Source: an uncultured Acidobacteriota bacterium (lineage in GTDB: Bacteria; Acidobacteriota; Vicinamibacteria; Vicinamibacterales; 2-12-FULL-66-21). Taken from it: 64,000 nt of DNA. Position 1 is the first letter of the stretch; every line of letters begins with the position of its first letter. Positions 8,001 to 52,733 of this stretch are shown piece by piece. Below the pieces are notes generated by a model. The model was not told where the DNA came from and searched no databases. It saw nothing but the letters and a program-made list of their open reading frames with translations. The position numbers were made by a program, and so were the translations under genes. The stretch covers positions 151,844-215,843 of the forward strand of contig CAVOPH010000003.1 of assembly GCA_963697775.1 (NCBI GenBank), given 5' to 3'.

Positions 8001-8539
8001 GCGCGCACGGTATTGCGCAGGAGCTGCAGTGGGGCGCGCCGCTTCGCGGCCGTGCCCTCATCGAGCTCGGACAGATCGAGCAGGGCATGGAGGAACTGAA
8101 GGCGGGCCTCGCCAATCACACCGTCACCCGCTCGGGCCTCCTGCGTCCCTACTACCTGGTTCTGCTTGCCGGCGGCTTGCTGCGCGCAAACCAGCTGGAG
8201 GAGGCGCTCGCGGCGATCAAGGAGTCCCGCGCATTTGCGGACCGGTCCAGCCAGCATTCGTACGACGCGGAGAACCGTCGTCTCCTGGCAGAAATCCTGC
8301 TGGCAATGGGCGACCACGAGGGCACCGAACGCGCTTATCTCGAGTCATTGGAGATCGCACGCACGCAGGGAGGCCAGTGGTACACGCTTCGGTCATCACG
8401 CGGCTACGCGAGCTTCCTGATCAGGGTCGGCCGCACCGACGAAGCGCGCAAGATCCTCGCGCCCGTTTGCGACTCCGTCGTCGAAGGACGCGACACCTAC
8501 GACTTCGTCTCCGCCGACGCGTTGCTGAAGACCATCTGA
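5080..8539 (+). CDS. Ser/Thr protein kinase fused to an AAA/STAND ATPase and TPR-like repeats; reading frame interrupted near 7725-7745
   Basis: Kinase motifs: GVGGMGEVYRA, HRDIKPDN, DFGLA and MSPEQ. P-loop: SAEAGLGKTT. The C-terminal helical repeats continue in frame 2 (ORF 7646..8539: PSFHKPRVWETGIDPGIFC...ALLKTI). The frame-1 ORF becomes Arg/Pro-rich nonsense after ARALELYQS. Confidence 0.8.
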
Positions 8540-8540
8540 C

Positions 8541-8589
8541 GCGATTCGCGATTCGCAATTCGCAATTCGCAATTCGCGGTTCGCGGTTC
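8541..8589 (+). repeat. heptamer tandem repeat (GCGATTC)2(GCAATTC)3(GCGGTTC)2
   Basis: Seven contiguous 7-nt units start 2 nt after the kinase stop codon (TGA at 8537-8539). Confidence 0.9.
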
Positions 8590-8611
8590 GCCCGCCTTCG
8601 GCTAGGCCGGC

Positions 8612-9791
8612 TTATTTCAGCTGAATGCTTCGCATCTCGCCTGCCTGCAGGTCGAGGGTACCGGACCCCGACTTTGGGACTCGGCTTATAAGCGTCGTCG
8701 AGCGACAGCACGCGGCCGATCTCGACGCGACACCGGCCTGGATTGGACTTCGACGGATAACAGACGAAGCCGATGTCGGTAGCCCGGCGCGAGCCGGGGA
8801 TCGCGATGCGGACCCATCCGTTCCGATCCACCGCGAGGTCCTTGACACCGCGGTCCGACGACCGCCATGTTCCGTCTTCTCCTCGCGCGATCGCGGCGAC
8901 CGCGGCGTCGGTCAGCGTCAGCTTCGCATCGACGTACAGGTACTCACGGACATCGCCGTAAACAGCCGTCTTCCCTTCTTCCTGCAGCTCGTCGGCCATT
9001 CGGCGGTAGACCCAGGGAGCGCCGTCCATGACGGACTCGCGCGTGGCCGACTCCAGGTTGACGGCCGTCGGCACCATCGTCACGCGCACGGCGGTGCGGC
9101 CGCGATCGAGAAACACGTTGTTCAGCGTGGCATCGACCAGAACCGGGTGGTCGTTCTGCCTTGTGCCTGCGTATTCGAGCACGTGATGATCGGGCGCCTG
9201 GTACCGCGCCGCCACCATGCGTCCACCTTTCCACTCTTCTTCGTACGCCATCTCGATGTCGGTCGTGCGCCCCCACCGTGCGAGCAGCGCTGGCGTGGCC
9301 GTGCCGCCGTCCTCGTTCGAGAAGATGAAGCTGTATCGAAGCACGCCGGTCCCGTCCACCCGCAGGTCCTCGGCATAGAGCACCAGCGGGAGGTCCGTCG
9401 AGGTCCCGATCGTATCGGCCCGCAGCCACAGCGCTGGCGCATGGGAGACGACGACTGACTCAGACGCCACCGATGCGGTGAGCGCCGGCGCAGCCGCTCC
9501 CGCCGGCCAGGTCCAGTAGGGTGATGGCTGTGCGCCGATCTCGTGACGGCCTGCGGGCAGCGTGTGCAAGAGCGCGGTGTACGGCGGATGCCCGATCTTG
9601 CCGAAGACGAGCACGGTCGCCTTCACTTCGCCGTCGACGGTGAGGTCGAGCGCCGTCACCGCAGGAAGGCCGGAATCGCTGATCGTGAGAGTCACGACCG
9701 CATCGCCTGCCTTCGGCATCACGATCGAGGTCGAGGCGACGGCGGGCGGGGTTGTTGGGAACAACGCCAGCGCGAGCAGCATGTGCACCAT
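8612..9791 (-). CDS. hypothetical secreted protein; 3' end probably frameshifted near 8660-8690
   Basis: N-terminal signal MVHMLLALALFPTTPPAVAS. The sequence is globular over about 370 aa. The listed ORF (to 8421) then reads through the heptamer repeat and the kinase 3' end as Arg-rich sequence. An adjacent frame instead gives ...SGSGTLDLQAGEMRSIQLK and stops at 8612. Confidence 0.5.
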
Positions 9792-31090: not shown

Positions 31091-31441
31091 ATGAACGCAC
31101 TGGTCGGACTGTTTGTGGGCCTTCTGGCCGCGGATATCTCTGGCGCGTGGAAGTTGACGCTCGAGAAAGACCTCAGTGGCCATCCGGCCAGCCATGAATG
31201 CACATTTCAGCAGCAGGGGGAAAAGCTCACCGTGACGTGCGACGGCGGCGGAAAGCTCACCGGCAGCGTGAAGGACACCAAGGTCACGCTCGAGAACACC
31301 ACCGGCAAAAACAACGACATCGTCGTCCGCTACACCGGCGCCGTAAACCGGGAAGGCACGTTCATGAAAGGCGTGTGGCAATACGTCGATCCGGGCACGA
31401 AGCAGGAGAAGACGGGCAGGTTCTCTTTTGAGAAGCACTAG
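31091..31441 (+). CDS. hypothetical small secreted protein
   Basis: 116-aa ORF preceded by AGGAGA. It has an N-terminal hydrophobic segment and beta-rich sequence. It overlaps the convergent uvrA-like stop codon by 4 nt. Confidence 0.6.
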
Positions 31442-34411
31442 CCCGCGGCCAAATGCGCCTTGAGGAACCGTCCCGTGTGCGATGCCTTGCAGCGCGCGAT
31501 GGCTTCCGGGGTGCCCGTGGCGACCACTTCTCCGCCGGCGTGGCCACCCTCCGGCCCGAGATCGATCACGTAGTCGGCCGTCTTGATGACGTCGAGGTGG
31601 TGCTCGATGAGCAACACCGTATGACCTGCATCGACGAGGCGGTTGAGCGACTCGAGCAGGCGCTCGACGTCGGCCAGGTGCAGGCCCGTCGTCGGCTCAT
31701 CCAGGATGTAGACGGTGTGCTTCGACCGCTGCAGCGTGGACAACTCGGTCGCGATCTTGATCCGCTGCGCCTCGCCACCTGAAAGGGTCGTTGCCGACTG
31801 GCCCAGCGTCAGATAACCGAGACCGAGATCCGCGAGCACCTGGACCTTTCTGCCGATCGCCGGCTCCGAGGCGAAAAAGCCGACCCCCTCCTCCACCGAC
31901 ATGTTCAGCACATCGTCGATCGTCTTGCCCCGGAGGGTCACCTCGAGCGTCTCGCTGTTGAATCGTGCGCCCTTGCACGTCGCGCAGGTCACTTCGACGT
32001 CAGGCATGAAGTAGAGCTGCGTCGTGATCACCCCTTCGCCCTGACATTCCTCGCAACGGCCACCCTTCACGTTGAAGCTGAAGCGTCCCGGTTTGTAATC
32101 GCGTTCGACTGACAGGGGTGCCTGCGTGAAGAGATCGCGGATATTGTCGTAAAAGCCGATGTAGGTCGCAGGATTCGATCGGCTGTTCCGTCCGATCGGC
32201 GCCTGATCGATGTTTACGACTTTCTGCACGTGCTCGATTCCGTCCACGCCGCCGTGCGCGCCTGGAAGCGTGCGCGTGTCGACCAGCCGCTTCCACAGCG
32301 CCTTGTAGAGGATCTCGCTGACGAGCGTGCTCTTGCCCGACCCCGACGCGCCGGTGATCGCCACGAGCAGGCCAAGAGGGAACGTGACATCCACGGCCTT
32401 GAGGTTGTTTTCCCGCGCGCCGCGGACGACGAGCGCCCGGCCGCTACCCGCGCGCCGCTTTCGAGGCGTCGGGATGCTGCGCGTGCCCGACAGGTACTGC
32501 CCCGTCGGTGACGCCTTGCACTTGAGCACATGGTCAATCGTCCCCTGCACGACCACCTGCCCTCCGTGGACGCCAGGGCCGGGGCCCATCTCGACGATGT
32601 GATCGGCGGCGCGAATGGTGTCCTCGTCGTGCTCGACGACCAGGACGGTGTTGCCGATGTCGCGGAGCCGTTCCATGGTCGCGATCATCTTGACGTTGTC
32701 CTTCGGATGCAGGCCGATGCTCGGTTCGTCCAGCACGTAGAGCATGCCCATCAGCCCGGAGCCGATTTGGGTGGAGAGACGGATCCGTTGCGATTCGCCG
32801 CCAGACAATGTCCCTGAGCGACGGTTGAAGCTCAGATAATCGAGGCCGATCCCCAGCAGCAGTTCGAGCCGTCCGCGGATCTCCTTCAAGACCTGGCGCC
32901 CCGCGTCGGCGCCACGGCCGGACGGTTTGACGGTGCCGAGAAACTCGTGCAGCTCGTCGAAGTGCAGCTGGCCGAGGTCGTAGATGCTGCGGCCGTGAAT
33001 CGTGAACAGCAGCCTGGTCGGACGAACTCGCGCACCGTTGCAGTCCGGGCACGTGCGTTCGACCATGACTTTGTCGAGCCACGCCTCCATGCGCGAGTTC
33101 GCTTCACCACGCTGTCGATAGTGCCGGTACCATCGCTCGATCCGACGGGCAATGCCGTGGAAACCGATTTCCCGTCCCTCCTGATCGGCGCGCCGTACCT
33201 TCGCATCGGGCGGGCGTCATGATCGGGATCTTGTTCGTGCCGATGCCGTAGAGAATGGCCTGACGAGCCTCGTCCGGAAGGTCTTTCCACGCCGAGTCGA
33301 GCGGAAATTTCAGCGCGTTTGCCAGACTGAACATCATCCGGCCATTCCAGGTGTCCGGGTTGTAGTTGAACGCCTCTCGGACGAAACAACCACCGAGAAT
33401 GCTGCGCTGCGGATCGGGCACGAGCAGCTCGGGATGCGTGAGCTTGTCAACCCCAAGCCCGCCGCACGTGCGGCATGCGCTTTCCGGGTTGTTGAACATG
33501 AAGTATTCGGGCCCGATATCTCCGTAGATGAAGTGATGGGTGGCGCTGGACGACTCCTTGTAGAAGCGTTGCGCGTCCGCCTTGCTCGCGCCTTTGACAA
33601 TGTGCACCTGCATCAGGCCGTCGCCGACGAGGAGTGTCGCCGCAATCCCTGCCTTGATCGCTTTCTCGTGCTTCCGGCCGACGATGAAGCGGTCGACGAC
33701 CGCCTCCATCTGCGCGTTGACGGGCGCCGCATCGCTACTGTCCGGGCTGCGCGCACCATCTTCCGCAGGCTCGGGCTCGGCGCGATCCGCAAGGTCGAGC
33801 GGTTTCCCGTCGATGAACATGCGGCGACAGCCCTTTTTCCGCACCTCGGCGAAGAGCACCTCGATATCCTCGCCGTAAATTGGAAAGACAGGGGCTCTCA
33901 GTTCAATCTCGGTGCCTTCCGGCAGCGACAGGATGGATTCGAGAATCTGGCTCGACGACCGGCTTGGCGTCGGTTCACCGGTGCGCGGGCAGTGCGGCTG
34001 CCCGATCGTCGCAAAGAGGAGATTCAGGTAACTCGCGATGTCGGTCATCGTTCCGACCGTCGACCGCGGGTTGTTGGTCAGCGTCTTCTGCTCGATCGAG
34101 ATCACCGGCGACAGGCCGAACACGTAATCGACGTCCGGCTTGGTCACCTGCGCGATGAAGCGCTTGGCAAAACTCGACAGCGATTCCATGTAACGACGCT
34201 GTCCTTCGGCGTAGATCGTGTCGAAAGCGAGGCTGGATTTTCCGGAACCGGAGAGACCGGTGACGACCGTCATCCGATCGCGCGGAATCTCGACAGAGAT
34301 GTTCTTCAGATTGTGGACGCGCGCCCCCTGCACGGCAATTGTCGTGCGCGCTGGAGCGGCGGCTTTCTTGGGGGCCGCTCGCCGGTTGGCCTGGCGGAGA
34401 GGTGACGTCAT
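31438..34411 (-). CDS. UvrA-like excinuclease ABC subunit A paralog; frame interrupted near 33205-33216
   Basis: N-terminal half from the ATG at 34411: [44 protein letters not shown]-terminal half (ORF 31438..33090): [44 protein letters not shown] and [10 protein letters not shown]. The halves join through IPIMTPP / [30 protein letters not shown] in adjacent frames. The first zinc module looks degenerate (QPHCPRTG). Confidence 0.85.
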
Positions 34412-35335
34412 CGGCGGATTGGCTCGCTCAGATAGAAGAAGGCCAGTTCCTGGACCTCGACCGTACTCTTCTTCGTCAGGCGGACCGGCAGCGACGCCTT
34501 GCCAATCATCTGTTGATCGGCGAGGTACTCGCATGCCGTCGTCACGTGGCTGACGTTCATGTGCCTGGAGAAGTAGTCGTCGATTTCTCTCGACGAACGT
34601 GCTTCGCCTACCTCCCGCAGGTGTTCGATGATCAATGCAAACAGCGCTGGCGCGCGATCGGCGATGTAGCGATCGATGGCCTCGAGCGCGTCCTGAACGG
34701 TCTTGCGCGTTTTCCTGGTATTGAGCAGCTCGGTATAGATCGTCTTGAAGAAATCCGGGTTCAGCTTCATTGCCTGCGGGATCACCTCGCGGTCGGCGAT
34801 GAGCCGATGGGACACGACCTCGATCTGGGCCAGCCCGGTCGCGGCATAGAGAATCCACAGCGCCGTGTAGTCGAGATCGCCGCGCGTAATGAACCACTTG
34901 TGCGCCTTGTAGATTGAGGGCAGCGCATGGGTCGCGGCACGAAGGAGCTGTAGCTGGGTGTCGCGTGCACCGACCTTCTGAGCCTGAACGCACAGATCGC
35001 CGATCGTTTCGTCGTGGGTGTACAGGAGCCGGCGCCTTCGCCAGAAGGGCACGAACGAAAGAATTGTCGAATGAGCCCTCGATGACCCGTCGAAACTCTC
35101 CTCGCGGGATCAGGTTGACATGAACGTTCACGCCGTCGGCATACAACGGCAGGTCCGAGCTCTCGACCTTCTTGTCGTCGATGGTCACCAGCATCAAGTC
35201 GATGTCGGACTTCTCCCAGACGACGTCGTGCGACAGGCTGCCGCACAGAATGGCGGCGAGGATCGACCGATCCTTCTTGATTTGTTCGACGAGCGCGTCG
35301 AGCGCAACCGTAAACCGCTGCTGGACGGCATCCAT
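34408..35335 (-). CDS. nucleotidyltransferase-domain protein with helical and winged-helix-like C-terminal regions; frame interrupted near 35025-35045
   Basis: Start MDAVQQRF. The NTase core is [22 protein letters not shown]. It continues in ORF 34408..35052 ([13 protein letters not shown]...[10 protein letters not shown]). Its stop codon overlaps the uvrA-like ATG (ATGA). Confidence 0.65.
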
Positions 35336-35623
35336 GGGGTGATGTTCCCCAAACACTATATCCACGGCGGGGCCTCCGGTCATCACCTCCAGTCGTGTCG
35401 CCTGCTCGTGACATCGGGAACACGAGGAGAGGACACGCTTCCTCGAAATCGCTCACAAATTCGCCACACTTCTGTCGCAGACAGGCAGTCTCCGCGAACG
35501 CGCGCCGATCGCGTTCGCGCTTGCCCATGTTCGAGTTTGCGAGCTCGATGCCTTCTCGCCCCGTTGTCACACATTTCGCTGGCGAACAATTTGCTCCGCC
35601 GTCGTTCGACAAAGGAGAGCCAT

Positions 35624-40363: not shown

Positions 40364-41425
40364 TCAGCGTATTCGGACCCGAACCGAGTACTGGTCCGGC
40401 ACCGTCGCGGAACTGTTCGGCACCCGGATCGGCGGCAACTCGAACGACAGCACATCGTCCGGCCCCGGCATTGGATTTCGAGTTGTGCTGCTCCCGCTGG
40501 CACCGCTCGTCGCATCGCGATTCGGGCCGGTTGAGGAGTACCAGACCCTGCGTATTGTTGTGAAAACCAACTGCGGAGAGCCCTCGTCGGCCGTCAGCCG
40601 CAACAATCCTCTAATTTGAACATTGAGAGGTCCCGCTGCGGTGTCGACCGTGAAGGGCGAAAAGGCAAAGCCGGCGGTGTCAACCTCCCGCAATATGAGA
40701 CCTTGCAGGTTGTACTCAGGATTTTCTGGATGAGCCTTGTCGGTCCTCACCAGAAAGAGCTCGAATGTTCTCGAACTCACACCAACCATGCTGTCTGTCT
40801 TTGGCATGTGAACCAGTCGACCACCACCGCCGCCACTGCTCGCGCCTGCTCCGACGCCCGATCCTGAGCCTGAGCTTGCGCCGCCGCCAGAGGTGCCGCT
40901 CCGCATGATCGTGACCGCCGGTGATTCAGTCAGTGGTCCGGCGGGTCCGACCATCCACCCGGGTCGAGGCTCGTACCTGGCCTCGAAGCTCACTGTCCTG
41001 GCGCCGCAACCAGCGGTTGGATCCGGTGTCGCAGAATCGAGCGGTACTCGATCGCCGGGATGAAGCGTCAGTTGAATCGACGCGCCCGGTGCCGTTGTGG
41101 CCACCCCCGCACTTCGAATGCGCTGCCAGTCGACTCGGACCACCGCCTCATCGCCGGTCATCCTCTCGACCTTGCCTGAAATTCGCCAGGCATCGGTCGC
41201 TGAATCAGGAACGGGCCGGTTTCCTCCACCGATCATGCAGCCTGCAATGTACTGACGTGATTCGGTCGCAAGTGTCGTCTCGTAGGCGGCAGCTTGTGAC
41301 TTGCCATCCGGTCCATACGAAAAGACGCCGACCTGCAGCACCGGAGTGTCCGGCGATTTCGACGGGGCACCACCGGTCGCCTGCGCCGCAAGAATGAGCA
41401 GAGCGATTGAAATCGTCATTGTCAT
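40364..41425 (-). CDS. hypothetical secreted protein with a Gly/Ser-rich linker (third gene of the ECF operon)
   Basis: Signal peptide MTMTISIALLILAAQA. There are two globular halves separated by SGTSGGGASSGSGSGVGAGASSGGGGG. The start overlaps the anti-sigma stop codon (ATGA). Confidence 0.6.
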   Translation of the reverse strand: MTMTISIALLILAAQATGGAPSKSPDTPVLQVGVFSYGPDGKSQAAAYETTLATESRQYIAGCMIGGGNRPVPDSATDAWRISGKVERMTGDEAVVRVDWQRIRSAGVATTAPGASIQLTLHPGDRVPLDSATPDPTAGCGARTVSFEARYEPRPGWMVGPAGPLTESPAVTIMRSGTSGGGASSGSGSGVGAGASSGGGGGRLVHMPKTDSMVGVSSRTFELFLVRTDKAHPENPEYNLQGLILREVDTAGFAFSPFTVDTAAGPLNVQIRGLLRLTADEGSPQLVFTTIRRVWYSSTGPNRDATSGASGSSTTRNPMPGPDDVLSFELPPIRVPNSSATVPDQYSVRVRIR

Positions 41426-41859
41426 TGCCCTTCAACTTTCTCCGTCCAATTCACGCCAGGGCGAAGCGGCACTATGCGCGTTGGTCTTGGCGCCGCGCCA
41501 CTTCCGCTGAAGTCCAAAACTGTTTCCACGCTCGGCGCTGGCGCCGCCTGCACCGTTCGCTGCCCCGCCACGTATCCAGCCGTGAGGCTGACGATGATGG
41601 CCGCAGCGGCGGCCATCCACCCGAAACGGGATAGAACCGAGCGGCGCTCGCACCACTGCACCGGCGTCAGCTCTGAGAGCGTGCCTACGGACTGCCTCAG
41701 GCCGATCAGGTCGACGAGATACTCGCGCACCGCCGGGTCATCGAGGGCAGCCTTCAAAGTCGCAGGATCGACTGGCTCGCCGTCGGCGAGTGCCGCCACG
41801 GCGAGGTACGAGTACTGGTTCGGCTCGGCGCTGTCCCGCTCGCCACCATTGGTCATCAC
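41422..41859 (-). CDS. putative anti-sigma factor (single-pass membrane protein)
   Basis: 145 aa with a central TM helix (FGWMAAAAAIIVSLTAGYVAG). Its start overlaps the ECF sigma stop codon by 4 nt. The call rests on position only. Confidence 0.55.
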   Translation of the reverse strand: MMTNGGERDSAEPNQYSYLAVAALADGEPVDPATLKAALDDPAVREYLVDLIGLRQSVGTLSELTPVQWCERRSVLSRFGWMAAAAAIIVSLTAGYVAGQRTVQAAPAPSVETVLDFSGSGAAPRPTRIVPLRPGVNWTEKVEGQ

Positions 41860-42461: not shown

Positions 42462-44426
42462 CTACGGGCGTCCCGCGGCGAGCGCCCATGTCGGAAAGTA
42501 GGCGTGATAGAGCCGGTAGTCGAGCATGGCCGTCCCGAAGAACACGCCGTTGACGGCTCCAGCCGGCCAGGATCCATCAGGGGCCTGGAGGGATTCGAGA
42601 AGAATTCGGCCGCGGCGCATAGCGTCGCAGTCAGGGTCCCCGTACGCGAGCGCCAGGACGGCCCAGCTGGTCATCACGGGCTGTGGCTGCGTGTGCGGAA
42701 CATACCTGCCGGTGAGACAGCTGGAGTAATGCTCACCCCACCCACCGTCCTCTCGTTGCAGCGCCTTGAGCCAATTCAGCGCTCGACGAATCGCCGGATC
42801 CTGACGATCGACGCCGGCAGCACGCAGTGCCTTGACGACGTGAAAGAGGCTGTAGGTGAAACAGACACCCCACGCCGCAGGAAAACGTCCGTCTGGCAGT
42901 TGACTGCGCCGAAGGAAGGCGACCGCGGAGTTCAGAGCCGCGGCGACGCGCTGATCTCGCACGTCCGGATGCGTCCGGCGCACGGTGGCAAGGGCTTCGA
43001 TCGCTGACGCCGTGCACTCGACGTACGAATGCTCCGTCATGCAGTCGCGAAACATTTCGGACGGGTTCAGGCGATCGAGCCAGGCAGGACCGCGGCTCCG
43101 TTCGTAGGTGCTGAAGCCACCGTCGTCATTCTGTCGGGCAAGCAGAAACTCGATCGCCTGGGTCACGCGCTCGACACTCAAGTGGTCGGTATCCGGGATG
43201 AGCCCCGGTACGCGTTGCATGTCGAGGATGGCCGTCAACGCTTCGGCAGTGCAGTCGCTGACCGGCCATTGATGACGACCGTCCGAGAAGCACCACCCGC
43301 CCAGAATGGGCTCGCGGTCGTGCGCCACCTCCGCCGGCAACTCGTCACGCATCTGAGCACCTGCCAGATACGAGTGCGCGCGGCGGAGACTCGCGCACGC
43401 TGCATTCAGCGTCGGCGTCGATGTGGCGTCGGCGGGCGCAACGGTCACATCTTCGAGCAAGGCGCGCGCGGCGAACGCCGTATCCCACACCTGTGACCGC
43501 GCGCCGGCGTACCGAACACCGGCTGCGGCGTCACGCCATTGCCAGTTTTCGATTCCCTCGAGGCTGGGACCGAGATCCCGGTGCGATCGATCGCGGGACA
43601 GAATGGCCAGGCAGTTCAACAAGGCATTGACCGGCGAGAGACCTTGATATCGCGACGCATGCTGTTCGTGCAGAACTTGCTCGAAGCAAGCAGCGAGCGC
43701 CCGCTGACGCAGCCTCCGCGGCATCCACGTCAACACGACGGTCAGCGCACCGCGGAAGATCGGGAGGAGAGGAGACGGCCGGGCGTATAAATCGACGTCC
43801 GACACCTCGTCGCGATGGGCGGCAAAATCGATGCGGTCGAATTGCTCCTCGTACAACTCCGTGCGAAGCGCATCCCGCAGCGCGCCGAGGTCGGCGGTGA
43901 ATTGGCAACCATACAGATATGCCATTCCCAGATAGATGTAGCGCGTGTGGCAGTACCAGTGCCTGGGGTGAAACGGCAGCCACCGCGGCAGAAGAAACAA
44001 CTCCGGCGGCACACTTCCAACACCCTTGAAGTCATACAAGCCGACGAGTGCGAGCCAGAACTTGCCCCATGTCGGAATCGCGAGGACGCCGCCGGGCTGA
44101 CGACGGAGCCACTGCCGCGCGGGCGCGGCCAACTGATCCTCCGGCGCCACACCGAGGAGCCGCAGTGCGACGTATGCCAGCGTCGTCGTGAAGATCTGTG
44201 GCGGTCCTTCGGGATGAAGTCCCCACCCACCCTCAGCGGTCTGCGTCACCGTATAGTGCTGGCGGATCTGCGCGCGATCTCTTTCATCCAGCTCTCGTCC
44301 GGTTGCATGCCGAACGATGACGTACTGCGAGAGGATCATCGTGCACCACACGACTTCTCCTTCCCACGAGCCGTCCTCGCGCTGCAGCGAACGAAGATGC
44401 TCAATCGCGAGCTCGCCCGGATTCAA
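42462..44426 (-). CDS. oxidosqualene cyclase (lanosterol/cycloartenol synthase-type triterpene cyclase)
   Basis: Multiple QW repeats: QREDGSWEG, AEGGWGL, QNDDGGFS, QLPDGRFP, QREDGGWGE, QAPDGSWP. The catalytic motif HQWPVSDCTAEAL (Asp codon 43254-43256) is the OSC type, not the SHC DxDD type. SQVWDTAF is present. The start is uncertain: the TTG at 44426 overlaps the upstream stop codon, and the ORF is open to 44654. Confidence 0.85.
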   Translation of the reverse strand: MNPGELAIEHLRSLQREDGSWEGEVVWCTMILSQYVIVRHATGRELDERDRAQIRQHYTVTQTAEGGWGLHPEGPPQIFTTTLAYVALRLLGVAPEDQLAAPARQWLRRQPGGVLAIPTWGKFWLALVGLYDFKGVGSVPPELFLLPRWLPFHPRHWYCHTRYIYLGMAYLYGCQFTADLGALRDALRTELYEEQFDRIDFAAHRDEVSDVDLYARPSPLLPIFRGALTVVLTWMPRRLRQRALAACFEQVLHEQHASRYQGLSPVNALLNCLAILSRDRSHRDLGPSLEGIENWQWRDAAAGVRYAGARSQVWDTAFAARALLEDVTVAPADATSTPTLNAACASLRRAHSYLAGAQMRDELPAEVAHDREPILGGWCFSDGRHQWPVSDCTAEALTAILDMQRVPGLIPDTDHLSVERVTQAIEFLLARQNDDGGFSTYERSRGPAWLDRLNPSEMFRDCMTEHSYVECTASAIEALATVRRTHPDVRDQRVAAALNSAVAFLRRSQLPDGRFPAAWGVCFTYSLFHVVKALRAAGVDRQDPAIRRALNWLKALQREDGGWGEHYSSCLTGRYVPHTQPQPVMTSWAVLALAYGDPDCDAMRRGRILLESLQAPDGSWPAGAVNGVFFGTAMLDYRLYHAYFPTWALAAGRP

Positions 44427-45655
44427 TAGAGTCCCGGCACGATGCGCCAGCGGACCTTCTGGCAATACGCCTCCCAATCCTGACCGTACTTGTCCAGGCA
44501 CATCCGATGGTCGCGACGTTCGCGATGGAGCAGCAGGATCAGGAAGTAGACGATATAGAAATAGGTCAACGGATGTGAGAACCCGGTCGGCAGGCACCAC
44601 GCCAGGCCCATCAGCAGGTCGCCGAAGTAGTTCAAGTGCCTCGAGACGCCCCACCAGCCCGACGTCAGCAGGAGCGCGCCGCTTCCCGTGCGAATGTAAA
44701 CCGGCGGCCGGCCCCAGACCGGACGCGTCGGGTCGCGCCGGAACCGGTGCTTCTGAATGTTCGCGCCGCGAAAGATCAGGTACCCGGCCATGTTCAAGAG
44801 GACGATTCCAGTTGTCGCGATGAAGGACAGTTCATGCGGGTGGGTCACGAGATAGTAGGCCTGCACGGTATACATGAACGGAACCCACACCAGATCGCCC
44901 CAGCACAACATCCATCCAAACCGCTCGTGCTTGATGTCCCAGGCGGTGACGATGGCTTCCTCGTGAAAGAAGTAATCAGCGACGTACAGAAACTGAAAGG
45001 CATTCACGAGAATCATCGGCGTCGTGACGAAGCCTTGGAGCTCATACTGCTTCGCCGCACAGGAAGCATCGAGAAGCACCCAGAGCATCAGGCCGGGGCG
45101 CGCCTCACAGAAGAATTTCAGATCGAGGTGTCCAATCCGCGGGTTGAGCGACACCCCAAACACATAGCCGACGATTCCACCTTTCGCCCGCGCGGCAGTC
45201 GATCGCTCCCTCTGTGACCAGAAAACGGCCGCCGCGATCGCGAATGCGGCAATGTTTGCGGTGACCAGGAGCGGACCGAATTCGTCGTATGCGATCGAGC
45301 CGCGCACCCTGCCAGACCACACGGCCACCAGCACGATCCCGATCGTGCAGACGAACGACAGCAGCCCATTCATTCGATACTCGAGCCGCGATCCGTCGGA
45401 TAGGGGCATCCCGGTCGCGGATCGGCCGGGGACGACGAAATAGAGCGCGACCTGCAGGATCAGCCACGACACGTAAAGAAGAGTCGCCGCGACGGTGGGC
45501 CGCGGCAGGTACTGATGGAGGCCGTCGCGGATCTGCGGCGCAAGCGGAGAAACCAGCGCTCCATCGAAAAACGTCAGACACAGCCAGGAGTACCAGGCAA
45601 AGACGGGAAGACCAATCAGCATCGCCGCAGCGGACAGGCGACGATCTGCAGTCAT
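44423..45655 (-). CDS. ERG4/ERG24-family sterol reductase (C-14 / C-7 / C-24(28) type; specificity not assignable)
   Basis: About 9 TM helices. The C-terminal signature LNYFGDLLMGLAWCL...LLLHRERRDHRMCLDKYGQDWEAYC matches the sterol reductase family signature (LLHRxxRDxxxCxxKYG). ATG at 45655 (MTADRRLSAAAMLIGLPVF). Confidence 0.85.
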   Translation of the reverse strand: MTADRRLSAAAMLIGLPVFAWYSWLCLTFFDGALVSPLAPQIRDGLHQYLPRPTVAATLLYVSWLILQVALYFVVPGRSATGMPLSDGSRLEYRMNGLLSFVCTIGIVLVAVWSGRVRGSIAYDEFGPLLVTANIAAFAIAAAVFWSQRERSTAARAKGGIVGYVFGVSLNPRIGHLDLKFFCEARPGLMLWVLLDASCAAKQYELQGFVTTPMILVNAFQFLYVADYFFHEEAIVTAWDIKHERFGWMLCWGDLVWVPFMYTVQAYYLVTHPHELSFIATTGIVLLNMAGYLIFRGANIQKHRFRRDPTRPVWGRPPVYIRTGSGALLLTSGWWGVSRHLNYFGDLLMGLAWCLPTGFSHPLTYFYIVYFLILLLHRERRDHRMCLDKYGQDWEAYCQKVRWRIVPGLY

Positions 45656-45713
45656 CGGCGTCGAGATTAGCGAAGTCGTGTTTCGGTGTAAACTGCGGGC
45701 TCTCCGAGGCCCG

Positions 45714-46754
45714 ATGGCTCCCTCCGCTACCCTCGTTACCGGCGCGACCGGACACCTGGGCGCAAACCTCGTCCGGCGGCTACTGCACGAAGGCGTACGC
45801 GTCCGGGTCCTGCTGCGGCCGACGCACGACCCGCGCGCGGTTGAGGGACTCGATGTCGAGCGCGCGCCTGGCGACATCTGCGACCGCGCCTCGATCGAAG
45901 CGGCGATGGAGGGCTGCGCACGGGTTTTTCACTGCGCCGCGAAGATCTCAATCACCGCCGGCGGTGAGCGCGAGATCTACGACACTAATGTGCTCGGCAC
46001 GCGCAACGTCCTCGCGGCGGCGGCACGCGCCGGCGTCGTGCGCACGGTGGTCACCGGATCGTTCAGCGCGGTGGGCCATCATCCCGATCGCCCGAGCGAC
46101 GAGCGGGATCCGTTCAACCCGTTCGCGAAAGCACTGCCGTACGAGCGGTCCAAGGCCGCCGTTGAACACGAGTGCCTGAAGGCGGCGGTGGAAGGACAGG
46201 ATGTCGTGATCGCGATCTCGTGTGCGATCGTCGGCCCTCACGACTTCAAGCCATCGCGGATGGGCCGGGTCGTGTGCGACTTCGCGAACGCCCGAATGCC
46301 CGCGTACATTCCTGGAGGGTTCGAGTTCGTTGCCGCCCGCGACATCGTGACCGGCCATCTGCTGGCGATGGAGCGTGGACGTTCGGGTCAGCGCTACATC
46401 TTCAGCACCGAATTCGTCACCGTCGATACCTTGATGCAGTGGCTGGAAGAGATCACCGGCCAACCGCGGCCGCGGCTGCGCCTGCCGCCTGCCGTGATGG
46501 CCGCGATCGCTGAAGTGGCGAGTCCGCTGCTCACGATCCTTGCGCCACATCGTCCGCAGCGCCTGACACCTGCCGCCGTTCACCTGCTCCGAATGGGCCG
46601 GCGCGCGGACTGCTCGAAGGCGAAACAGGAACTTGGCTATCAGCCCACGTCGGTCAAGGATGCCGTGCGCGACGCGTATGAATGGTTCGTCGCCAACGGA
46701 GACATCCGAAAGGTGGCGAATCCAGCGTCAGTCACCGAGACACGGAGAGTCTGA
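45714..46754 (+). CDS. extended-SDR NAD(P)-dependent 3-beta-hydroxysteroid dehydrogenase/reductase-like enzyme (SdmB/ERG26-type candidate)
   Basis: Rossmann motif VTGATGHLGANLVRRLL. Catalytic YxxxK in PYERSKAAVE. It is the first gene of the operon that includes CYP51 and the Rieske oxygenase. Confidence 0.7.
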   Translation: MAPSATLVTGATGHLGANLVRRLLHEGVRVRVLLRPTHDPRAVEGLDVERAPGDICDRASIEAAMEGCARVFHCAAKISITAGGEREIYDTNVLGTRNVLAAAARAGVVRTVVTGSFSAVGHHPDRPSDERDPFNPFAKALPYERSKAAVEHECLKAAVEGQDVVIAISCAIVGPHDFKPSRMGRVVCDFANARMPAYIPGGFEFVAARDIVTGHLLAMERGRSGQRYIFSTEFVTVDTLMQWLEEITGQPRPRLRLPPAVMAAIAEVASPLLTILAPHRPQRLTPAAVHLLRMGRRADCSKAKQELGYQPTSVKDAVRDAYEWFVANGDIRKVANPASVTETRRV

Positions 46755-48106
46755 TGACCGATTCCCCGTCGGCGACGCTGCCTCCTCTCTTGCCCGGCGG
46801 CCTTCCCTACCTTGGACACGCGTTCGAGTTCTGGAGCCGGCCAGTCGATCTGCTTCAGGCAGGTCAACGCAGGTTCGGCAGCGTCTGGAGCTTCGTGCTG
46901 GCAGGCCAGCGTGCCACCGTGCTGACAGGGCCGGAAGGGAACGAGGCCTTTTTCCGCGCGCCGGACGATGTACTCAGCGCGCGCGACTGCTACAAGTTCA
47001 CCATTCCCGTGTTCGGACCGGGTGTGGCGTACGACGTGCCGCCCGCGGAGATGGATCGCCAGCTCGCGTTCGTCCACCCGGCGCTCAGCGACAAGCGGCT
47101 GCGCAAGTACGTCGAGGTGATGGTCGAGGAGGCTGAACAATATCTGACCACCTGGGGCGACGCCGGCGAGCGGGATCTGTTCTCGACGACGCAGGACATC
47201 ACGCTCTTCATTGCCACTCGCTGCCTCCTCGGCGACGAGGTCCGCCGCCATTGCAGCACGCGGTTCGCTCAGCTCTACCACGATCTCGACGGCGGAATGT
47301 CGATCCTCGCCTACTTCTTTCCGCATGCGCCGCTGCCAGCGTTCCGGCGCCGCGATCGCGCGCGTGATGCGGTCTATGCGCTGCTGTCGGACATCATGGC
47401 GCAGAGACGACGGAATGGAGCCGCGGCGCACGAGGATTTCCTCAGCACGCTGATGGCGTTTCGCGACGAGCATGGTGCACCCCTGTCCGACAACGTCGTT
47501 GTCGGTCTGTTGCTGACGCTCATCTTTGCCGGGCAGCATACGAGCGCGGTGCTGGCGGCGTGGACCGGCATCCTGCTGCATCAGCATCCGCACTATCTGC
47601 CGCCGATTCTGGAAGAGCAGGTTCGTGAGCTTGCCGGCAACGATCTCACCACCGAGTCGCTGAAACGGCTGGTCGTGCTCGAGCGCGCGATCAAGGAAGC
47701 CGAACGGTTACGGCCGCCGCTGGTCATGCTGATGCGATCGGTTCAGCAGCCGCTTCGCGTCAACGGCTACGAGCTGCCGGTCGGTTCGCTCGCGCTTGCC
47801 TCGCCGGCGGTCTCTCACCGCCTGCCGGCGATCTACACCGAACCCGATCGTTTCGATCCCGAGCGATTCGGCCCGGGCCGGGAGGAGGATCGCCGAGCCT
47901 CGTACTCGCTGATAGGCTTCGGCGGCGGCAAGCATCGCTGTATCGGAATGGTGTTCGCCTACCAGCAGATCAAGATCATCTGGACCAGCATCCTGCGACG
48001 ATATGACATCGAGCTCGTCGAGCGCGAGTATCGGCCCGACTACCGTACGCTCGTGGTCGGCCCCTGCCAGCCGTGCCGCATCAGATACAGAAGGAGAGCT
48101 GCGTGA
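46754..48106 (+). CDS. cyp51: sterol 14-alpha-demethylase, cytochrome P450 family 51
   Basis: CYP51 signatures: YKFTIPVFGPGVAYD (B' helix and B-C loop), LTLIFAGQHTSAV (helix I) and the haem loop FGGGKHRCIGMVFAYQQIKIIW. The overall order resembles mycobacterial CYP51. The ATG overlaps the upstream TGA (TGATG). Confidence 0.9.
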   Translation: MTDSPSATLPPLLPGGLPYLGHAFEFWSRPVDLLQAGQRRFGSVWSFVLAGQRATVLTGPEGNEAFFRAPDDVLSARDCYKFTIPVFGPGVAYDVPPAEMDRQLAFVHPALSDKRLRKYVEVMVEEAEQYLTTWGDAGERDLFSTTQDITLFIATRCLLGDEVRRHCSTRFAQLYHDLDGGMSILAYFFPHAPLPAFRRRDRARDAVYALLSDIMAQRRRNGAAAHEDFLSTLMAFRDEHGAPLSDNVVVGLLLTLIFAGQHTSAVLAAWTGILLHQHPHYLPPILEEQVRELAGNDLTTESLKRLVVLERAIKEAERLRPPLVMLMRSVQQPLRVNGYELPVGSLALASPAVSHRLPAIYTEPDRFDPERFGPGREEDRRASYSLIGFGGGKHRCIGMVFAYQQIKIIWTSILRRYDIELVEREYRPDYRTLVVGPCQPCRIRYRRRAA

Positions 48107-49209
48107 CGCCCCCGACGTTCGAACAGGCACACAATCATCGCCAGCGAGTACGCGCCGCCGGCCTCAGCCCGGACCACTGGTACCCGGTCGAATGGGAGCG
48201 GAACGTCAAGCCCGGGCAGGTCATCGACACGACGTTCTGGAACCAATCAATCGCGGTCTTCCGCGGAAAGAATGGATCGCTCTATGCGGTTGAAAACCGC
48301 TGCGCGCATCGCCAGCTGAAACTCTCGCTGGGTGAGGTCGGCGACTGCACGATCACGTGCGGATACCACGGGTGGATGTACGACGGCGAGGGGCGATGCA
48401 CGCAGATGTTCCACGATCTCTTCGGTCACACGTTTCCGCGGCTGAAGATCGCGTCGTTTCCGGTCCAGGCGCGGCACGGGCTCGTCTGGATCTTTCCCGG
48501 GAACCCGGCGCTGAAAGACGAGCGGCGTATCCCGGACATTCCTGAACTGGAACAGGCTCGACCGTGGGGATCCATCGCGATCGATTTCACGTGGCGCGCG
48601 CACCACTCGATGATCATCGACAACGTCAGCGACTTCACCCACGCCTACCTGCATCGCAAGAGCAAGCCGTTCACCGATGCGAAGCTCACGATGATGGAGC
48701 CGCAGGCCGACCGCGTGCTGCTCGCGTACGACACGAAAGTCGGCCAGGGACGAATCTCAGGATTGTTCGTCGATCGAAAGCGGACGAACACGAATGCGAT
48801 GACGCTCGCCTACGAGTATCCGTATCAGTGGTCCAACACCGACGACAAGATCAAGCACTGGTGCTTCGTGCTGCCGATCGACGGCGAGACCACGCGGGTG
48901 TTCTTCATCTTCTATTTCAGCCATGAAATGCTGAAGGTGCCGCTGATTCCGCTGCGAATGCCGCGGCCGCTCATCCGCGCAATCATGGCCGCGTCAAAAC
49001 GGCTGCTGGTCAAACCGCTGCTCGAAGAGGACGGCGTCGCGGTCGAAGCCGAACAGGAAGCGTGGCGAAAGCATTACGAACAGCCGATCGCAGAACTGAA
49101 CCCTGCAGTCCATCAATTTCAGCAGCTGACCATCCGCAAGTGGGAGGAGCACCTGGCGCGATCGGTGAAGCCGAGGGCCGCTACTTCCGCTCCAGCTCTC
49201 TCCGGCTGA
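48103..49209 (+). CDS. Rieske non-haem iron oxygenase, SdmA-like (candidate sterol C-4 methyl oxidase)
   Basis: GTG start overlaps the CYP51 stop codon (GTGA), 6 nt after AAGGAGAG. Rieske motif CAHRQLKLSLGEVGDCTITCGYHGW. Mononuclear iron motif DNVSDFTHAYLH. Confidence 0.75.
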   Translation: MTPPTFEQAHNHRQRVRAAGLSPDHWYPVEWERNVKPGQVIDTTFWNQSIAVFRGKNGSLYAVENRCAHRQLKLSLGEVGDCTITCGYHGWMYDGEGRCTQMFHDLFGHTFPRLKIASFPVQARHGLVWIFPGNPALKDERRIPDIPELEQARPWGSIAIDFTWRAHHSMIIDNVSDFTHAYLHRKSKPFTDAKLTMMEPQADRVLLAYDTKVGQGRISGLFVDRKRTNTNAMTLAYEYPYQWSNTDDKIKHWCFVLPIDGETTRVFFIFYFSHEMLKVPLIPLRMPRPLIRAIMAASKRLLVKPLLEEDGVAVEAEQEAWRKHYEQPIAELNPAVHQFQQLTIRKWEEHLARSVKPRAATSAPALSG

Positions 49210-50018
49210 AGTCCTCCTCCTTCAAGCCAATGTTGTAGTGGACGTTGGTCATCGACAGCTCGGTGTGCGTCCGGGCACTCACGTCGGTCATGACGATCTC
49301 TGACAGCGTCCAGATCGATTGCACCAGATCCAGCCGCTTCACCTCGTAGACCTTTTCCTTCTCGTTGCGCCGATTGTAGATGTCCGCGTGCACGACGACG
49401 AAAGTGTCCTTCCGCACCGTCGAGACGACGCGTGGAAATCGCGCCTGCACATTTTTTGCGCGGGATTCGATTCGGTACACCGGTACCGTCTTGCCGTCAG
49501 GCCCGGCCCACGTGCCGTTCGGTTCAACCATGGTGTAGGTGTAGTCGTCGAGTTCGCGACCGCTGATGTCTTCGTAGGTAAAGTCGCTGCCGACGAAATT
49601 ATCCTGAGCTTCCGCGCCGGTAATCCTCCGCACCCGTCCCAGCGCCGGGCAGATAGAGGAACCGCTCGTCCTCCGAATCGGGGTGCTCCCACACCAGGAA
49701 CGCGGTGCCCTTGATGTCGTTCGGGTAGGTGAAACGAATCAGGATTCGATCGCCGGCATCGGTACCTTTGGCGGCTCCTCTGGCCTGCGGTCTCATCGTC
49801 TGAATCGACAATTCTCGTTCGCGGACCCGCTGCTGCCGATCGAACAGTCGCATCTTCAACTCGAAGCGGCCGTCTTTCCCGATGTCGCGATTGTCGGCCT
49901 GCCGGGCCACCCATTCCGCCGTTTCCGGTTGTGGCACCCTGGACACGGCATCTACGTAATACAACGGCAGCAGGCATGGAATCATCGCCAGGGCGAAACG
50001 TGCGCGGCACGTGACCAT
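49181..50018 (-). CDS. LolA-like outer-membrane lipoprotein-sorting family protein; frame interrupted near 49640-49650
   Basis: ILIRFTYPNDIKGTAFLVWEHPDSEDERFLYLP is followed in the adjacent frame by LGRVRRITGAEAQDNFVGSDFTYEDI...VKRLDLVQSIWTLSEIVMTD. This is the family's YLPalkrvrRI core. N-terminal signal MVTCRARFALAMIPCLLPL. Confidence 0.75.
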
Positions 50019-50094
50019 GGCCGGCGATCTTCGCCTCCCGCAAGGGAAAAGGCAAAGGGCAAAATTAAAAATCAGGCCGAAGGATATTGGCGTT

Positions 50095-51462
50095 ATGCTC
50101 AAAGCCAGTCCCGCCGTGGATGTCGAGTACGACATCGCAATCGTCGGTGCCGGCTTTACCGGCGCATTTGCCGCCGCCGCGCTTGCCGACGGCTATCGCC
50201 GCATCCTCGTACTGGACGCGCATCCCGAAGGCCGACCGCAGTTCGGCGGTGAACTGATCCACGCCGCCGGCGTGGACATCCTGATCAACCTCAAACTCTG
50301 GCCGATTCTTCAGCACGCGTCCGGCGAGCGCATTGACGGGTTCCACGTCAGCTCCGACGCCGGCGACCCGCCGGTCAGGCTTCCCTACCGCGACGTGCCG
50401 GCGCTGCGTCCCGGCGGCCTCGCGATCGAGCACCGTCAGATCGTCTCACGCGCTCGCGAGCATCTCGGGAGCCGACCGGGCGTGGACGTTCGCACGGGGC
50501 AGCGAGTCATCGACGTCATCTGGCGTAACGGTCGCGTCGCCGGCATAAAGACGGCGTCCGGCGAGCAGATCGGCGCCACGTTGACGCTGATCGCGGACGG
50601 AAGACACTCTCGCACGAGACGGGCGATCGGGATTCGGGCCCGGAAGCGCACCGTGTCGCTGAGCGCGATCATCACTGCCGAACACCAGTCCCTGCCGGAA
50701 CCGCGCTACGCCTGTATCTGTCTGGGCGCACCCGGCCCCAGCCTGGCCTACGGACTGCGCAATCGGGATGTCCGGTTCTGCATCGACGTGCCGATCACCG
50801 ACAATGTCACACGCGAGCACGTCGCCTCGCGACTTCGCAAGGAATATGCACCGCGACTCCCCAATCCGCTCCGGGCGCAGCTGCTGAGCGCGCTCGATGC
50901 GGGGCCGGTGGAGCTCTGCGGCAACGACATCGTCCAGACAGATCGGTGTACCGTCCCCGGCGCAGCCCTCATCGGCGACTCCGCCGGCTGTTCCCATCCG
51001 CTGACGGCGAGCGGGATGACCAACAGCCTCAATGACATTCGCATTCTGTCCGACGAGTTGCGCGCCGGTTCCACGCTCGATGAAGCGCTGGCCCGATACG
51101 AGGTGCGACGCTATCGATTCGTTCGGATCCGCGAGATTCTTGCGGAGGAGCTGTACCAAGCGTTCAGGGCAGAAGGCGCCGGCGAGCGCGCAATCCGCAC
51201 GGGGATCTTCCGCTACTGGCGCACGAGCGCGCATGGCCGCGCGGCGACCGTCGCGCTGCTCTCGGGCGACGATGCGCGTCTCAGTACCTTCGTCGGCGAG
51301 TACCTGCGCGTGATGCGCGAGTCGATCCACGGTACAGTGCTGCGTCCGAAGAGCGATTCGTCCCTGCGTGGTCGCGCACACTCGCTGGCAGGGCTGCTCA
51401 AGGAGTCGCTGGATCTGCTGAATCGCGTCAGCGCCGGCGTCTACACCGGCACCGTGAGATAA
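50095..51462 (+). CDS. squalene monooxygenase (squalene epoxidase)
   Basis: FAD fingerprint DIAIVGAGFTGAFAA. Motifs FGGELIHAAG and LIGDSAGCSHPLTASGMTNSLNDI, the latter corresponding to the epoxidase motif hPLTGGGMTV. Confidence 0.8.
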   Translation: MLKASPAVDVEYDIAIVGAGFTGAFAAAALADGYRRILVLDAHPEGRPQFGGELIHAAGVDILINLKLWPILQHASGERIDGFHVSSDAGDPPVRLPYRDVPALRPGGLAIEHRQIVSRAREHLGSRPGVDVRTGQRVIDVIWRNGRVAGIKTASGEQIGATLTLIADGRHSRTRRAIGIRARKRTVSLSAIITAEHQSLPEPRYACICLGAPGPSLAYGLRNRDVRFCIDVPITDNVTREHVASRLRKEYAPRLPNPLRAQLLSALDAGPVELCGNDIVQTDRCTVPGAALIGDSAGCSHPLTASGMTNSLNDIRILSDELRAGSTLDEALARYEVRRYRFVRIREILAEELYQAFRAEGAGERAIRTGIFRYWRTSAHGRAATVALLSGDDARLSTFVGEYLRVMRESIHGTVLRPKSDSSLRGRAHSLAGLLKESLDLLNRVSAGVYTGTVR

Positions 51463-51517: not shown

Positions 51518-52672
51518 TCACTTCCCCCGGGCCCTACCTTCTCCCGATACAGACGACGTGGTCAGCGCCGACCCTATTGCCCAGGTTGCAATGCGGCGAA
51601 GGCGCGGGCGCTCGTAGATGCGACCGATCGCGTCGAGCACCCCGACTCTCACGGCACCGCGAAACGCATGTCCCATCAGGAACCCCGGGACAAATGCGCC
51701 CCGGCAGCGCTTGGAATACCCCTGCCATGCGTTCGACTCATCCACTCCGCCCTGAACGACTTGCGCGAGCGTCTCGGCGGCGAGCACTCCGCAGCGCATC
51801 GCCTGATAAATCCCTTCACCCGTCGCGGCGTTGGTGAGCCGCGCGGATTCGCCGACATACAGAATCCCCGGAGCCGCCACCGCCTGTGGCCAAACCGAGT
51901 GCGCAATCGGGTGTCCGGACCATCGGCCAATCGTTCGCGCCGGCCGGAGGCGATCACTGTAGTGGCGCTGAAGAAACGATTCGAAGACGGGACGCAGGCT
52001 TCCCAAATCACCGCCGCTTCCTGCGCGCCTCCCGTCCACGACGATGCCGATGTTGACGCGTGACGGAGTCTCGGGAAACATCCAGCCGTACAGCGGGCAC
52101 AGCGCTCGATCGAAGATCATCTCGAGCGTGCCTGGCTCGAATTCGAACCCCTCCCACCAGCCCATGATCGTGGCCAGCGCCTGTTTCGGCCGCGAGTCTT
52201 GCGAAAATCGCGAATGGGCGCCGTCTGCGCAGATGACGTAGTCGGCCGCGATGACTTCATCGCCGGCGCGTACGCCCGCAACCCGGCCGCGGTCATGAAC
52301 CAGCGCGGTGACCTGTACGCCATCACGAAACTGGACACCGAGCGTCCGCGCGCGATCGACGAGAAGTTGATCGAAGTCTCTGCGCAGCAGCACAACCGCC
52401 GCCTCGCCGCCAGAGAGACGCAACGTGCGCCCGCCTGGAGTCGTCAGGAGCAACGAGTGGATGGTGTAGGCCCGTGCCCGGATCGCGTCCTCGACAGCCA
52501 GGTCGGCGAGGACCCGCAATCCGAGCGGGGAGATCGCCGAGCCGCAGGTTTTCTCTCTCGGGAAACGCGCGCGATCAAGAAGGATGACGTGCTGAAACCC
52601 GCGTCGGGCAAGCGCGATTGCGGCGGCACACCCGCCAGGTCCGGCGCCGACGATGACAATCCGGTCAGCCAC
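51518..52672 (-). CDS. geranylgeranyl-reductase-family FAD-dependent oxidoreductase
   Basis: GTG start. Dinucleotide fold IVIVGAGPGGCAAAIALARRG...LLDRARFPREKTCGSAISP. The ~380 aa length is typical of the family. Confidence 0.75.
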   Translation of the reverse strand: MADRIVIVGAGPGGCAAAIALARRGFQHVILLDRARFPREKTCGSAISPLGLRVLADLAVEDAIRARAYTIHSLLLTTPGGRTLRLSGGEAAVVLLRRDFDQLLVDRARTLGVQFRDGVQVTALVHDRGRVAGVRAGDEVIAADYVICADGAHSRFSQDSRPKQALATIMGWWEGFEFEPGTLEMIFDRALCPLYGWMFPETPSRVNIGIVVDGRRAGSGGDLGSLRPVFESFLQRHYSDRLRPARTIGRWSGHPIAHSVWPQAVAAPGILYVGESARLTNAATGEGIYQAMRCGVLAAETLAQVVQGGVDESNAWQGYSKRCRGAFVPGFLMGHAFRGAVRVGVLDAIGRIYERPRLRRIATWAIGSALTTSSVSGEGRARGK

Positions 52673-52733
52673 GATGTTGGCGCTCGCGAGTCCGCGGTCT
52701 CCAGGATCCAGAGCGGAGCGCTATAGTATCGCC

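Follow-up and report, generated by a model that had tools for sequence, protein, structure and literature searches.

The 64,000-nucleotide stretch of DNA analyzed here, positions 151,844 to 215,843 of contig CAVOPH010000003.1 from an uncultured Acidobacteriota bacterium and termed the window below, encodes on its minus strand an oxidosqualene cyclase (OSC) that is probably a functional bacterial ("group I", Methylococcus-type) enzyme, predicted to convert (S)-2,3-oxidosqualene mainly to lanosterol. The case is built on sequence homology and fold, on the identity of the key residues and their conservation throughout the clade, and on the neighboring genes, and the lanosterol prediction follows from the presence of Val at the position of human Val453, Phe at that of Phe444, an intact His232/Tyr503 dyad and the gene neighborhood. 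The initial annotation of this DNA had read a mixed lanosterol/cycloartenol signature in the cyclase and held that its first cyclization product could not be predicted. The residue calls are correct, and judged by the eukaryotic rules they do form a mixed signature. The conclusion drawn from them does not hold because the signature is invariant across a clade that includes Methylococcus capsulatus, only position 453 is diagnostic under the published Val453 rule, and residue 444 is Phe and not Leu.

Sequence Identity and Fold of the Cyclase

The cyclase is a minus-strand open reading frame (ORF) with its 3' end at 42462.

42462..44465, minus strand, oxidosqualene cyclase in its 667-aa form, stop codon included, with the start of the public gene call

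The ORF is intact and can be aligned over its full length, and the 667-aa form is 100% identical to the protein of the public record (P0130; NCBI and ENA). The phmmer alignment with human lanosterol synthase (LSS; PDB code 1W6K) covers the whole catalytic length with E = 2.3e-120, and the TIGR01787 profile of squalene/oxidosqualene cyclases is passed with 496.6 bits against a cut-off of 322.7. The catalytic Asp is found in the sequence PVSDCTAE (43242-43265), aligned to IVSDCTAE of the human enzyme, which is the OSC-type motif and not the DxDD of the squalene-hopene cyclases. The cyclase shares 55% identity with that of M. capsulatus over the full length, 58% with a Gemmataceae cyclase, 37% with human LSS and 33% with CAS1 of Arabidopsis thaliana (the motifs of the CAS1 sequence used match those of representatives such as P0219 and P0222). 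The closest cyclases from named genomes among the matches listed are only 60% identical. One protein of the window falls into a 90%-identity cluster together with a protein labeled Gemmatimonadaceae bacterium; for the Gemmatimonadota, no experimental account of sterol production was found.

An AlphaFold2 model of the cyclase, a comparison with human LSS that the initial annotation had suggested, was calculated from a 12-sequence alignment and has a mean predicted local distance difference test score (pLDDT) of 84.3 and a predicted template modeling score (pTM) of 0.87. The top Foldseek matches are the human OSC structures 1W6J and 1W6K with a template modeling (TM) score of 0.92 and root mean square deviations (r.m.s.d.) of 2.5-2.6 Å, ranked ahead of a plant OSC and the squalene-hopene cyclases. 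The model has the double α/α-barrel fold superposable on solved OSC structures, the comparison with 1W6K being one of global scores (TM score and r.m.s.d.). The window protein is an oxidosqualene cyclase.

Active Site and Specificity Residues

The residues of the cyclase were placed in four alignments (phmmer, MAFFT with 123 sequences, L-INS-i with 14 sequences, and MAFFT with 154 diverse representatives), which agree on the placement of the specificity residues. Equivalent positions are given in human numbering, taken for residues 85-717 from the phmmer alignment with 1W6K and checked by Thr381, Cys449, Val453, Asp455 and His232.

43242..43274, minus strand, motif HQWPVSDCTAE with His398 (human Cys449, position -6 from the catalytic Asp), Val402 (Val453, position -2), the catalytic Asp404 (Asp455) and Cys405 (Cys456), from the alignments
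43473..43520, minus strand, third specificity segment GVRYAGARSQVWDTAF, aligned as GVRYAGAR-SQVWDTAF with Ala322 at Thr381, a deletion at Gly383 and Trp327 at Trp387, from the alignments
43287..43289, minus strand, Phe393, equivalent to human Phe444, the residue of lanosterol (Phe) versus parkeol (Leu) specificity, from the alignment and PMC9236903
43947..43949, minus strand, His173, equivalent to human His232, the deprotonating base, from the alignment
43104..43106, minus strand, Tyr454, equivalent to human Tyr503, the partner of His232, from the alignment

Val402 falls on Val453, His398 on Cys449 and Asp404 on Asp455 in all four alignments, in agreement with the initial annotation. The third specificity position had been described as not cleanly alignable, and it indeed fits neither eukaryotic motif. 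The segment is anchored on a conserved Gly (human Gly380), which places Ala322 on Thr381 and Arg323 on Asn382 and leaves Gly383 with no counterpart, such that position 381 is neither Thr (lanosterol type) nor Tyr (cycloartenol type) and the loop is one residue shorter. An alternative equivalence of Tyr319 with Tyr410 of CAS1, as implied by a published "Y,H,V" triad, was rejected, as Gly380 is the anchor in all four alignments and Tyr319 then matches human Met378, three columns upstream. A study of an oomycete cyclase describes the triad for lanosterol synthases as "unique to bacteria" (PMC5101207), and the alignment used there evidently puts the conserved Tyr of the clade (Tyr319 here) at position 381, the same ambiguity as was met in the initial annotation. 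The choice between Tyr319 and Ala322 leaves the conclusion unchanged because the M. capsulatus cyclase is identical.

The catalytic and cation-stabilizing residues of the human enzyme (His232, Tyr503, Asp455, Cys456, Cys533, Trp387, Phe444, Trp581, Phe696 and Tyr704) are all conserved in the L-INS-i alignment, including both partners of the catalytic Asp, with Cys405 and Cys484 in the place of Cys456 and Cys533. In addition to the fold and 37% identity, human LSS shares with the window cyclase Val453, Phe444, the His232/Tyr503 dyad, the Asp455/Cys456/Cys533 group and the aromatic cage. The window cyclase differs from it in having His for Cys449, Ala for Thr381 in the short loop, Tyr for Trp230, Val for Tyr98 and Cys for Ile524, and in the absence of the ~80-residue N-terminal extension. 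The likeness to CAS1 is the His at position -6 (His477 in CAS1), which is matched by His398. CAS1 has Ile481 and, in a full-length QGYNGSQ loop, Tyr410, whereas neither the Ile at 453 nor the Tyr at 381 is found in the window cyclase, which has Val402 and, in a shorter GAR-SQ loop, Ala322. The Leu of the parkeol type is likewise absent at 444, the residue being Phe393.

In the M. capsulatus cyclase (locus L016) the two segments read GLRYVGARSNAWDTAF and HCWPVSDCAAE. This protein and the window cyclase are identical at positions 230, 232, 381, 382, 444, 449, 453, 455, 456, 503, 521, 524, 533, 581, 696, 697 and 704 and have the same deletion at 383. Over 26 active-site positions the only differences are conservative, with Met for Val at 98 and Ile for Leu at 335 in M. 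capsulatus. Next to His398, residue -5 is Gln in the window cyclase and Cys in M. capsulatus.

Distribution of the Signature

The signature is not peculiar to the window gene. Among the best 120 homologues from 5.8 billion proteins, Ala381, the absent Gly383, His449, Val453 and Asp455 are common to all 120, and position 382 is Arg in 118. The second sample comprises 80 genome loci among the matches listed, from GTDB species representatives spanning Methylococcaceae, Myxococcota/Polyangia, Gemmataceae, Rokubacteria/Methylomirabilota, Acidobacteriota and one Nonomuraea. The His/Val pair with Phe at 444 is present in 79 of the 80, the Phe being required by the motif pattern itself, and the short GAR/GAH loop is read in 77 of these 79 motif-bearing loci, the loop search giving no match in L035 and L039, where the His/Val motif is present. 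The sole locus outside the pattern (L061, a Fimbriiglobus metagenome-assembled genome) keeps the Val at -2 and has Gln at -6. Yeast lanosterol synthase also has Gln at this position. The Gln of L061 shows that position -6 is subject to drift in this clade. The Nonomuraea locus (L074, Nonomuraea monospora) is an actinomycete genome with an OSC of the same signature.

An exhaustive HMMER search of 1.84 billion 50%-identity cluster representatives gives the same picture at greater depth. The five-residue signature of the window cyclase is the most frequent (n = 45), followed by the plant-type Y/G/F/H/I (n = 18). The short-loop representatives nearly all have Val453 and never Ile, and the Ile453 representatives are all long-loop with nearly all of them having Tyr381 and His449. 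The combination of His449, Val453 and Ala381 in a short loop is the standard published signature of bacterial lanosterol synthases.

Two groups of unusual proteins are apparent among the same representatives. Seven cyclase homologues (P0175, P0179, P0190, P0192, P0198, P0199 and P0201) are 1,090-1,212 aa long and all carry the short-loop His/Val signature; Pfam scans identify P0175, P0192 and P0201 as natural squalene epoxidase-oxidosqualene cyclase fusions. In P0185, P0188, P0189 and P0205, which are short-loop OSC-like proteins, the His232/Tyr503 dyad is replaced (L/F, W/L, Q/F and F/W, respectively), making these putative candidates for non-sterol products.

Product Specificity

The published rules point to lanosterol. 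Desmond and Gribaldo noted that Methylococcus and Gemmata carry His449 yet produce lanosterol, position 453 being the only indicative one (PMC2817430). Wei, Yin and Welander found Val453 with lanosterol and Ile453 with cycloartenol in every bacterium tested (PMC4919349), and in the work of Thimmappa et al. the product was set by residue 444, with Phe giving lanosterol, Leu parkeol and Gln lanostadienol (PMC9236903). The literature names the M. capsulatus cyclase a lanosterol synthase, the papers on it cited in PMC5101207 and PMC12146001 being those of Lamb et al. (2007) and Nakano et al. (2007), and an M. capsulatus LSS candidate was selected in the study "Biosynthesis of lanosterol in Escherichia coli" (PMC12146001).

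Several points weigh against this assignment. The Val453 rule is based on a limited number of cultured bacteria, and the M. capsulatus locus read here is that of strain Texas, which may differ from the biochemically characterized enzyme. The 654-aa form scores 825.6 bits with the TIGR03463 profile of 2,3-oxidosqualene cyclases, just under the cut-off of 851. The active site also departs from the eukaryotic enzymes with Tyr for Trp230, Val or Met for Tyr98, Cys for Ile524, Phe for Asn697 and the shortened 381 loop, all of which are common to M. capsulatus. The short Ala381 loop together with Tyr230, Cys524 and Phe697 could shift the product profile away from plain lanosterol, for example to substantial parkeol or lanosta-7,24-dienol, which we consider unlikely; if true, the rules derived from eukaryotes and from Methylococcus would fail for this uncultured lineage.

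Parkeol as the main product or a large co-product, as in Gemmata obscuriglobus, appears quite improbable. The G. obscuriglobus enzyme (GoPS, parkeol synthase) belongs to the same bacterial group I and has His449 according to Desmond and Gribaldo (PMC2817430), the window cyclase is 58% identical to a Gemmataceae homologue, and one metagenomic bacterial OSC gave lanosterol plus parkeol (PMC12324236). However, parkeol specificity has been traced to Leu444 in sea-cucumber enzymes and in GoPS (PMC9236903), where the window and M. capsulatus cyclases have Phe, as has every motif-matching genome locus, in which Phe was a requirement of the pattern.

Similarly little credence is given to the possibility that the remodeled 381 loop and the bacterial substitutions yield another triterpenol (arborinol type, lanosta-7,24-dienol or a mixture) or an inactive protein. 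The loop is as long as that of plant pentacyclic triterpene synthases (no gap is needed to align 8J5Z), Tyr replaces Trp230 and Phe replaces Asn697, and the TIGR03463 score falls short as described above. The bacterial arborinol/eudoraenol cyclases (Eudoraea adriatica type), which are also bacterial OSCs, are characterized by Ser230, Tyr232, Val521 and Tyr697 (PMC12324236), however, and this signature is absent in the window cyclase, which has Tyr230, His232, Phe521 and Phe697 as in M. capsulatus. Furthermore, the intact ORF aligns over its full length with every catalytic residue conserved, and the gene forms part of a sterol operon that is itself conserved.

A cycloartenol synthase in which the His at -6 promotes cyclopropane closure as in plant CAS1 is very unlikely indeed, for although His398 aligns with CAS1 His477 (human Cys449) and some bacteria do make cycloartenol (PMC4919349), residue 453 is Val and not the Ile that tracked cycloartenol in every bacterial case tested (PMC4919349), Ala takes the place of Tyr410 in a loop shortened by one residue, the Ile453 sequences among the 50%-identity representatives are all long-loop with no short-loop sequence having Ile, M. 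capsulatus with the same His is described as a lanosterol producer, and the adjoining CYP51, Δ14-reductase and SdmAB set is that of the lanosterol-based Methylococcus pathway.

Proposed Mechanism

For a lanosterol-producing cyclase the reaction may be outlined by analogy with the human enzyme. The epoxide would be protonated by Asp404, with Cys405 and Cys484 holding this residue in place, and Trp327, Phe393, Trp532 and Phe642 would stabilize each cation formed on the way to, and including, the protosteryl cation. Once the hydride and methyl groups have shifted, the His173/Tyr454 dyad would take up the proton to leave the Δ8 double bond, with Val402 and Phe393 favoring lanosterol over 9,19-cyclopropane closure (cycloartenol) or Δ9(11) deprotonation (parkeol).

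In CAS1, His477 is a second-sphere residue acting through Tyr410. The His at -6 in the window cyclase is a conserved feature of the lineage and probably not a cycloartenol determinant, because the partner equivalent to Tyr410 is absent, with Ala in its place and the loop one residue shorter.

Start Codon and N Terminus

Two TTG codons are plausible starts of the cyclase.

44463..44465, minus strand, upstream TTG start (667 aa), 13 codons 5' of the other TTG, preceded by GGGAGG at a distance of 4 nt; the called start in L082 and several homologues, and CTG in L084
44424..44426, minus strand, alternative TTG start (654-aa form), in a TTGA overlap with the reductase stop codon; the called start in L083 and L084, and CTG in L082

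The downstream TTG (44426-44424) overlaps the TGA stop codon of the upstream Δ14-reductase gene (44425-44423), as stated in the initial annotation. The maximal ORF (730 aa, GTG at 44654) is not credible as it would begin 230 nt inside the reductase gene. Comparison of five loci with the same reductase-cyclase overlap shows that both TTG codons arise incidentally from codons conserved in the reductase (TAT-TGC and TAT-TGA). An apparent Met at codon -13 of many homologues was considered as a conserved ATG and rejected, the DNA showing a TTG that arises from the reductase Tyr-Cys codons (TAT TGC). A GTG at codon -9 is present in three of the other loci and is absent from the window gene, and no start codon is common to all five. 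Since no single start is universal, the choice between the 654- and 667-aa forms is ambiguous and the first 13 residues are uncertain; the first barrel helix is kept in either form.

The N terminus had been thought short if the downstream TTG is the true start. It is in fact normal for bacterial cyclases, because both lengths lie in the bacterial range (homologue median 657 aa, 10th-90th percentile 642-673) and the eukaryotic N-terminal extension of ~80 residues is present in none of the bacterial homologues examined.

Sterol Gene Cluster

The cyclase gene comes second in a pair on the minus strand, after that of a Δ14-sterol reductase, and further sterol genes lie beyond the reductase gene.

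44423..45655, minus strand, Δ14-sterol reductase (ERG4/ERG24 family), PF01222 E = 1.6e-123, PDB code 4QUV E = 6.3e-146
45678..46754, plus strand, SdmB-like NAD-dependent sterol C-4 demethylation protein, NF052578 E = 9.1e-110 (below the equivalog cut-off), Epimerase and 3Beta_HSD Pfam matches
46682..48106, plus strand, CYP51 sterol 14α-demethylase, probable ATG at 46754, no ferredoxin fusion, best PDB matches 7JJ1/6MI0/6MCW at ~1e-112
48073..49209, plus strand, SdmA-like Rieske 4-methylsterol monooxygenase, NF052579 E = 4e-116, Rieske and VanA_C Pfam matches
50011..51462, plus strand, squalene epoxidase, PF08491 E = 5.2e-31
51518..52672, minus strand, geranylgeranyl-reductase (GGR)-family flavoprotein, TIGR02032 164.9 bits (cut-off 158.8), with syntenic genes in L081 and L082
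52653..55517, plus strand, MMPL/RND transporter with a sterol-sensing domain and a C-terminal cyclic-nucleotide-binding domain, the same fusion being found in L082
41856..42377, minus strand, extracytoplasmic function (ECF) sigma factor, Sigma70_r2 and r4_2 Pfam matches, 84 bp downstream of the cyclase on the same strand and in the same position in L081

The reductase probably starts at the ATG at 45655 (maximal ORF to 45877), and the SdmB-like, CYP51 and SdmA-like genes are divergent from the reductase-cyclase pair. The sterol gene order is kept in L081 (cyclase 76% identical) and L082 (60%) and is partly visible in L083 and L084. The squalene epoxidase gene, 5.5 kb from the cyclase, supports the availability of 2,3-oxidosqualene. 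The window and M. capsulatus cyclases are both associated with CYP51, Δ14-reductase and SdmA/SdmB-type genes, and two of the PDB entries matching the window CYP51 (6MI0 and 6MCW) are the M. capsulatus enzyme (PMC7947880). In Methylococcus, lanosterol is processed by this same set of enzymes, and the cluster fits a lanosterol-producing cyclase. In such a pathway squalene epoxidase would act before the cyclase, with CYP51, the Δ14-reductase, SdmA/SdmB and perhaps a GGR-type C-24 reductase acting after it. A GGR-family protein carries out sterol C-24 reduction in bacteria (bioRxiv 10.1101/2024.11.01.621555), and the flavoprotein at 51518..52672 may by analogy be the sterol C-24 reductase of the cluster.

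The window differs from M. capsulatus in its lineage, in a CYP51 that is not fused to a ferredoxin, in the overlap of the cyclase with the upstream Δ14-reductase gene and in the ECF sigma factor that follows the cyclase. The sigma factor gene is followed on the same strand by a 145-aa ORF (41422-41859) and a 353-aa ORF (40364-41425), and this order from the cyclase onward is the same in L081, suggesting that control of the sterol genes is linked to the sigma factor. The 145-aa ORF has no Pfam match and is a possible anti-sigma factor, and the 353-aa ORF is Gly/Ser-rich.

Among the other genes of the cluster, the MMPL/RND transporter (52653-55517) has weak similarity to the sterol transporter BstA. 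A 238-aa ORF on the minus strand (49339-50055), between the SdmA-like and squalene epoxidase genes, has no Pfam match, and its syntenic counterparts in L081 and L082 match PF17131 (TP_0789-like); its product may be a lipid or sterol carrier.

Elsewhere in the window, UvrA appears on the minus strand to be divided between two ORFs that differ in frame (33104-35386 and 31438-33090). The cluster mates of the downstream part are intact UvrA proteins of about 990 aa, and the split (31438-35386) reflects a frameshift or else an error of assembly. Large Ser/Thr protein kinases are encoded at two places, 5080-8691 (plus strand) and 12338-14533 (minus strand), one fused to an AAA_16 ATPase and one to tetratricopeptide repeats, in keeping with a soil bacterium of complex lifestyle.

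Implications

The "mixed" His449/Val453 signature is already textbook for bacterial lanosterol synthases and is alone of little weight, the product being predictable from the published rules for Val453 and Phe444. The finding has its modest value in the context, which is an apparently complete Methylococcus-type sterol cluster in an uncultured bacterium. The likely bacterial sterol producers are thereby extended by a further lineage, a point that bears on the reading of sterane biomarkers and on debates over how sterol synthesis originated.

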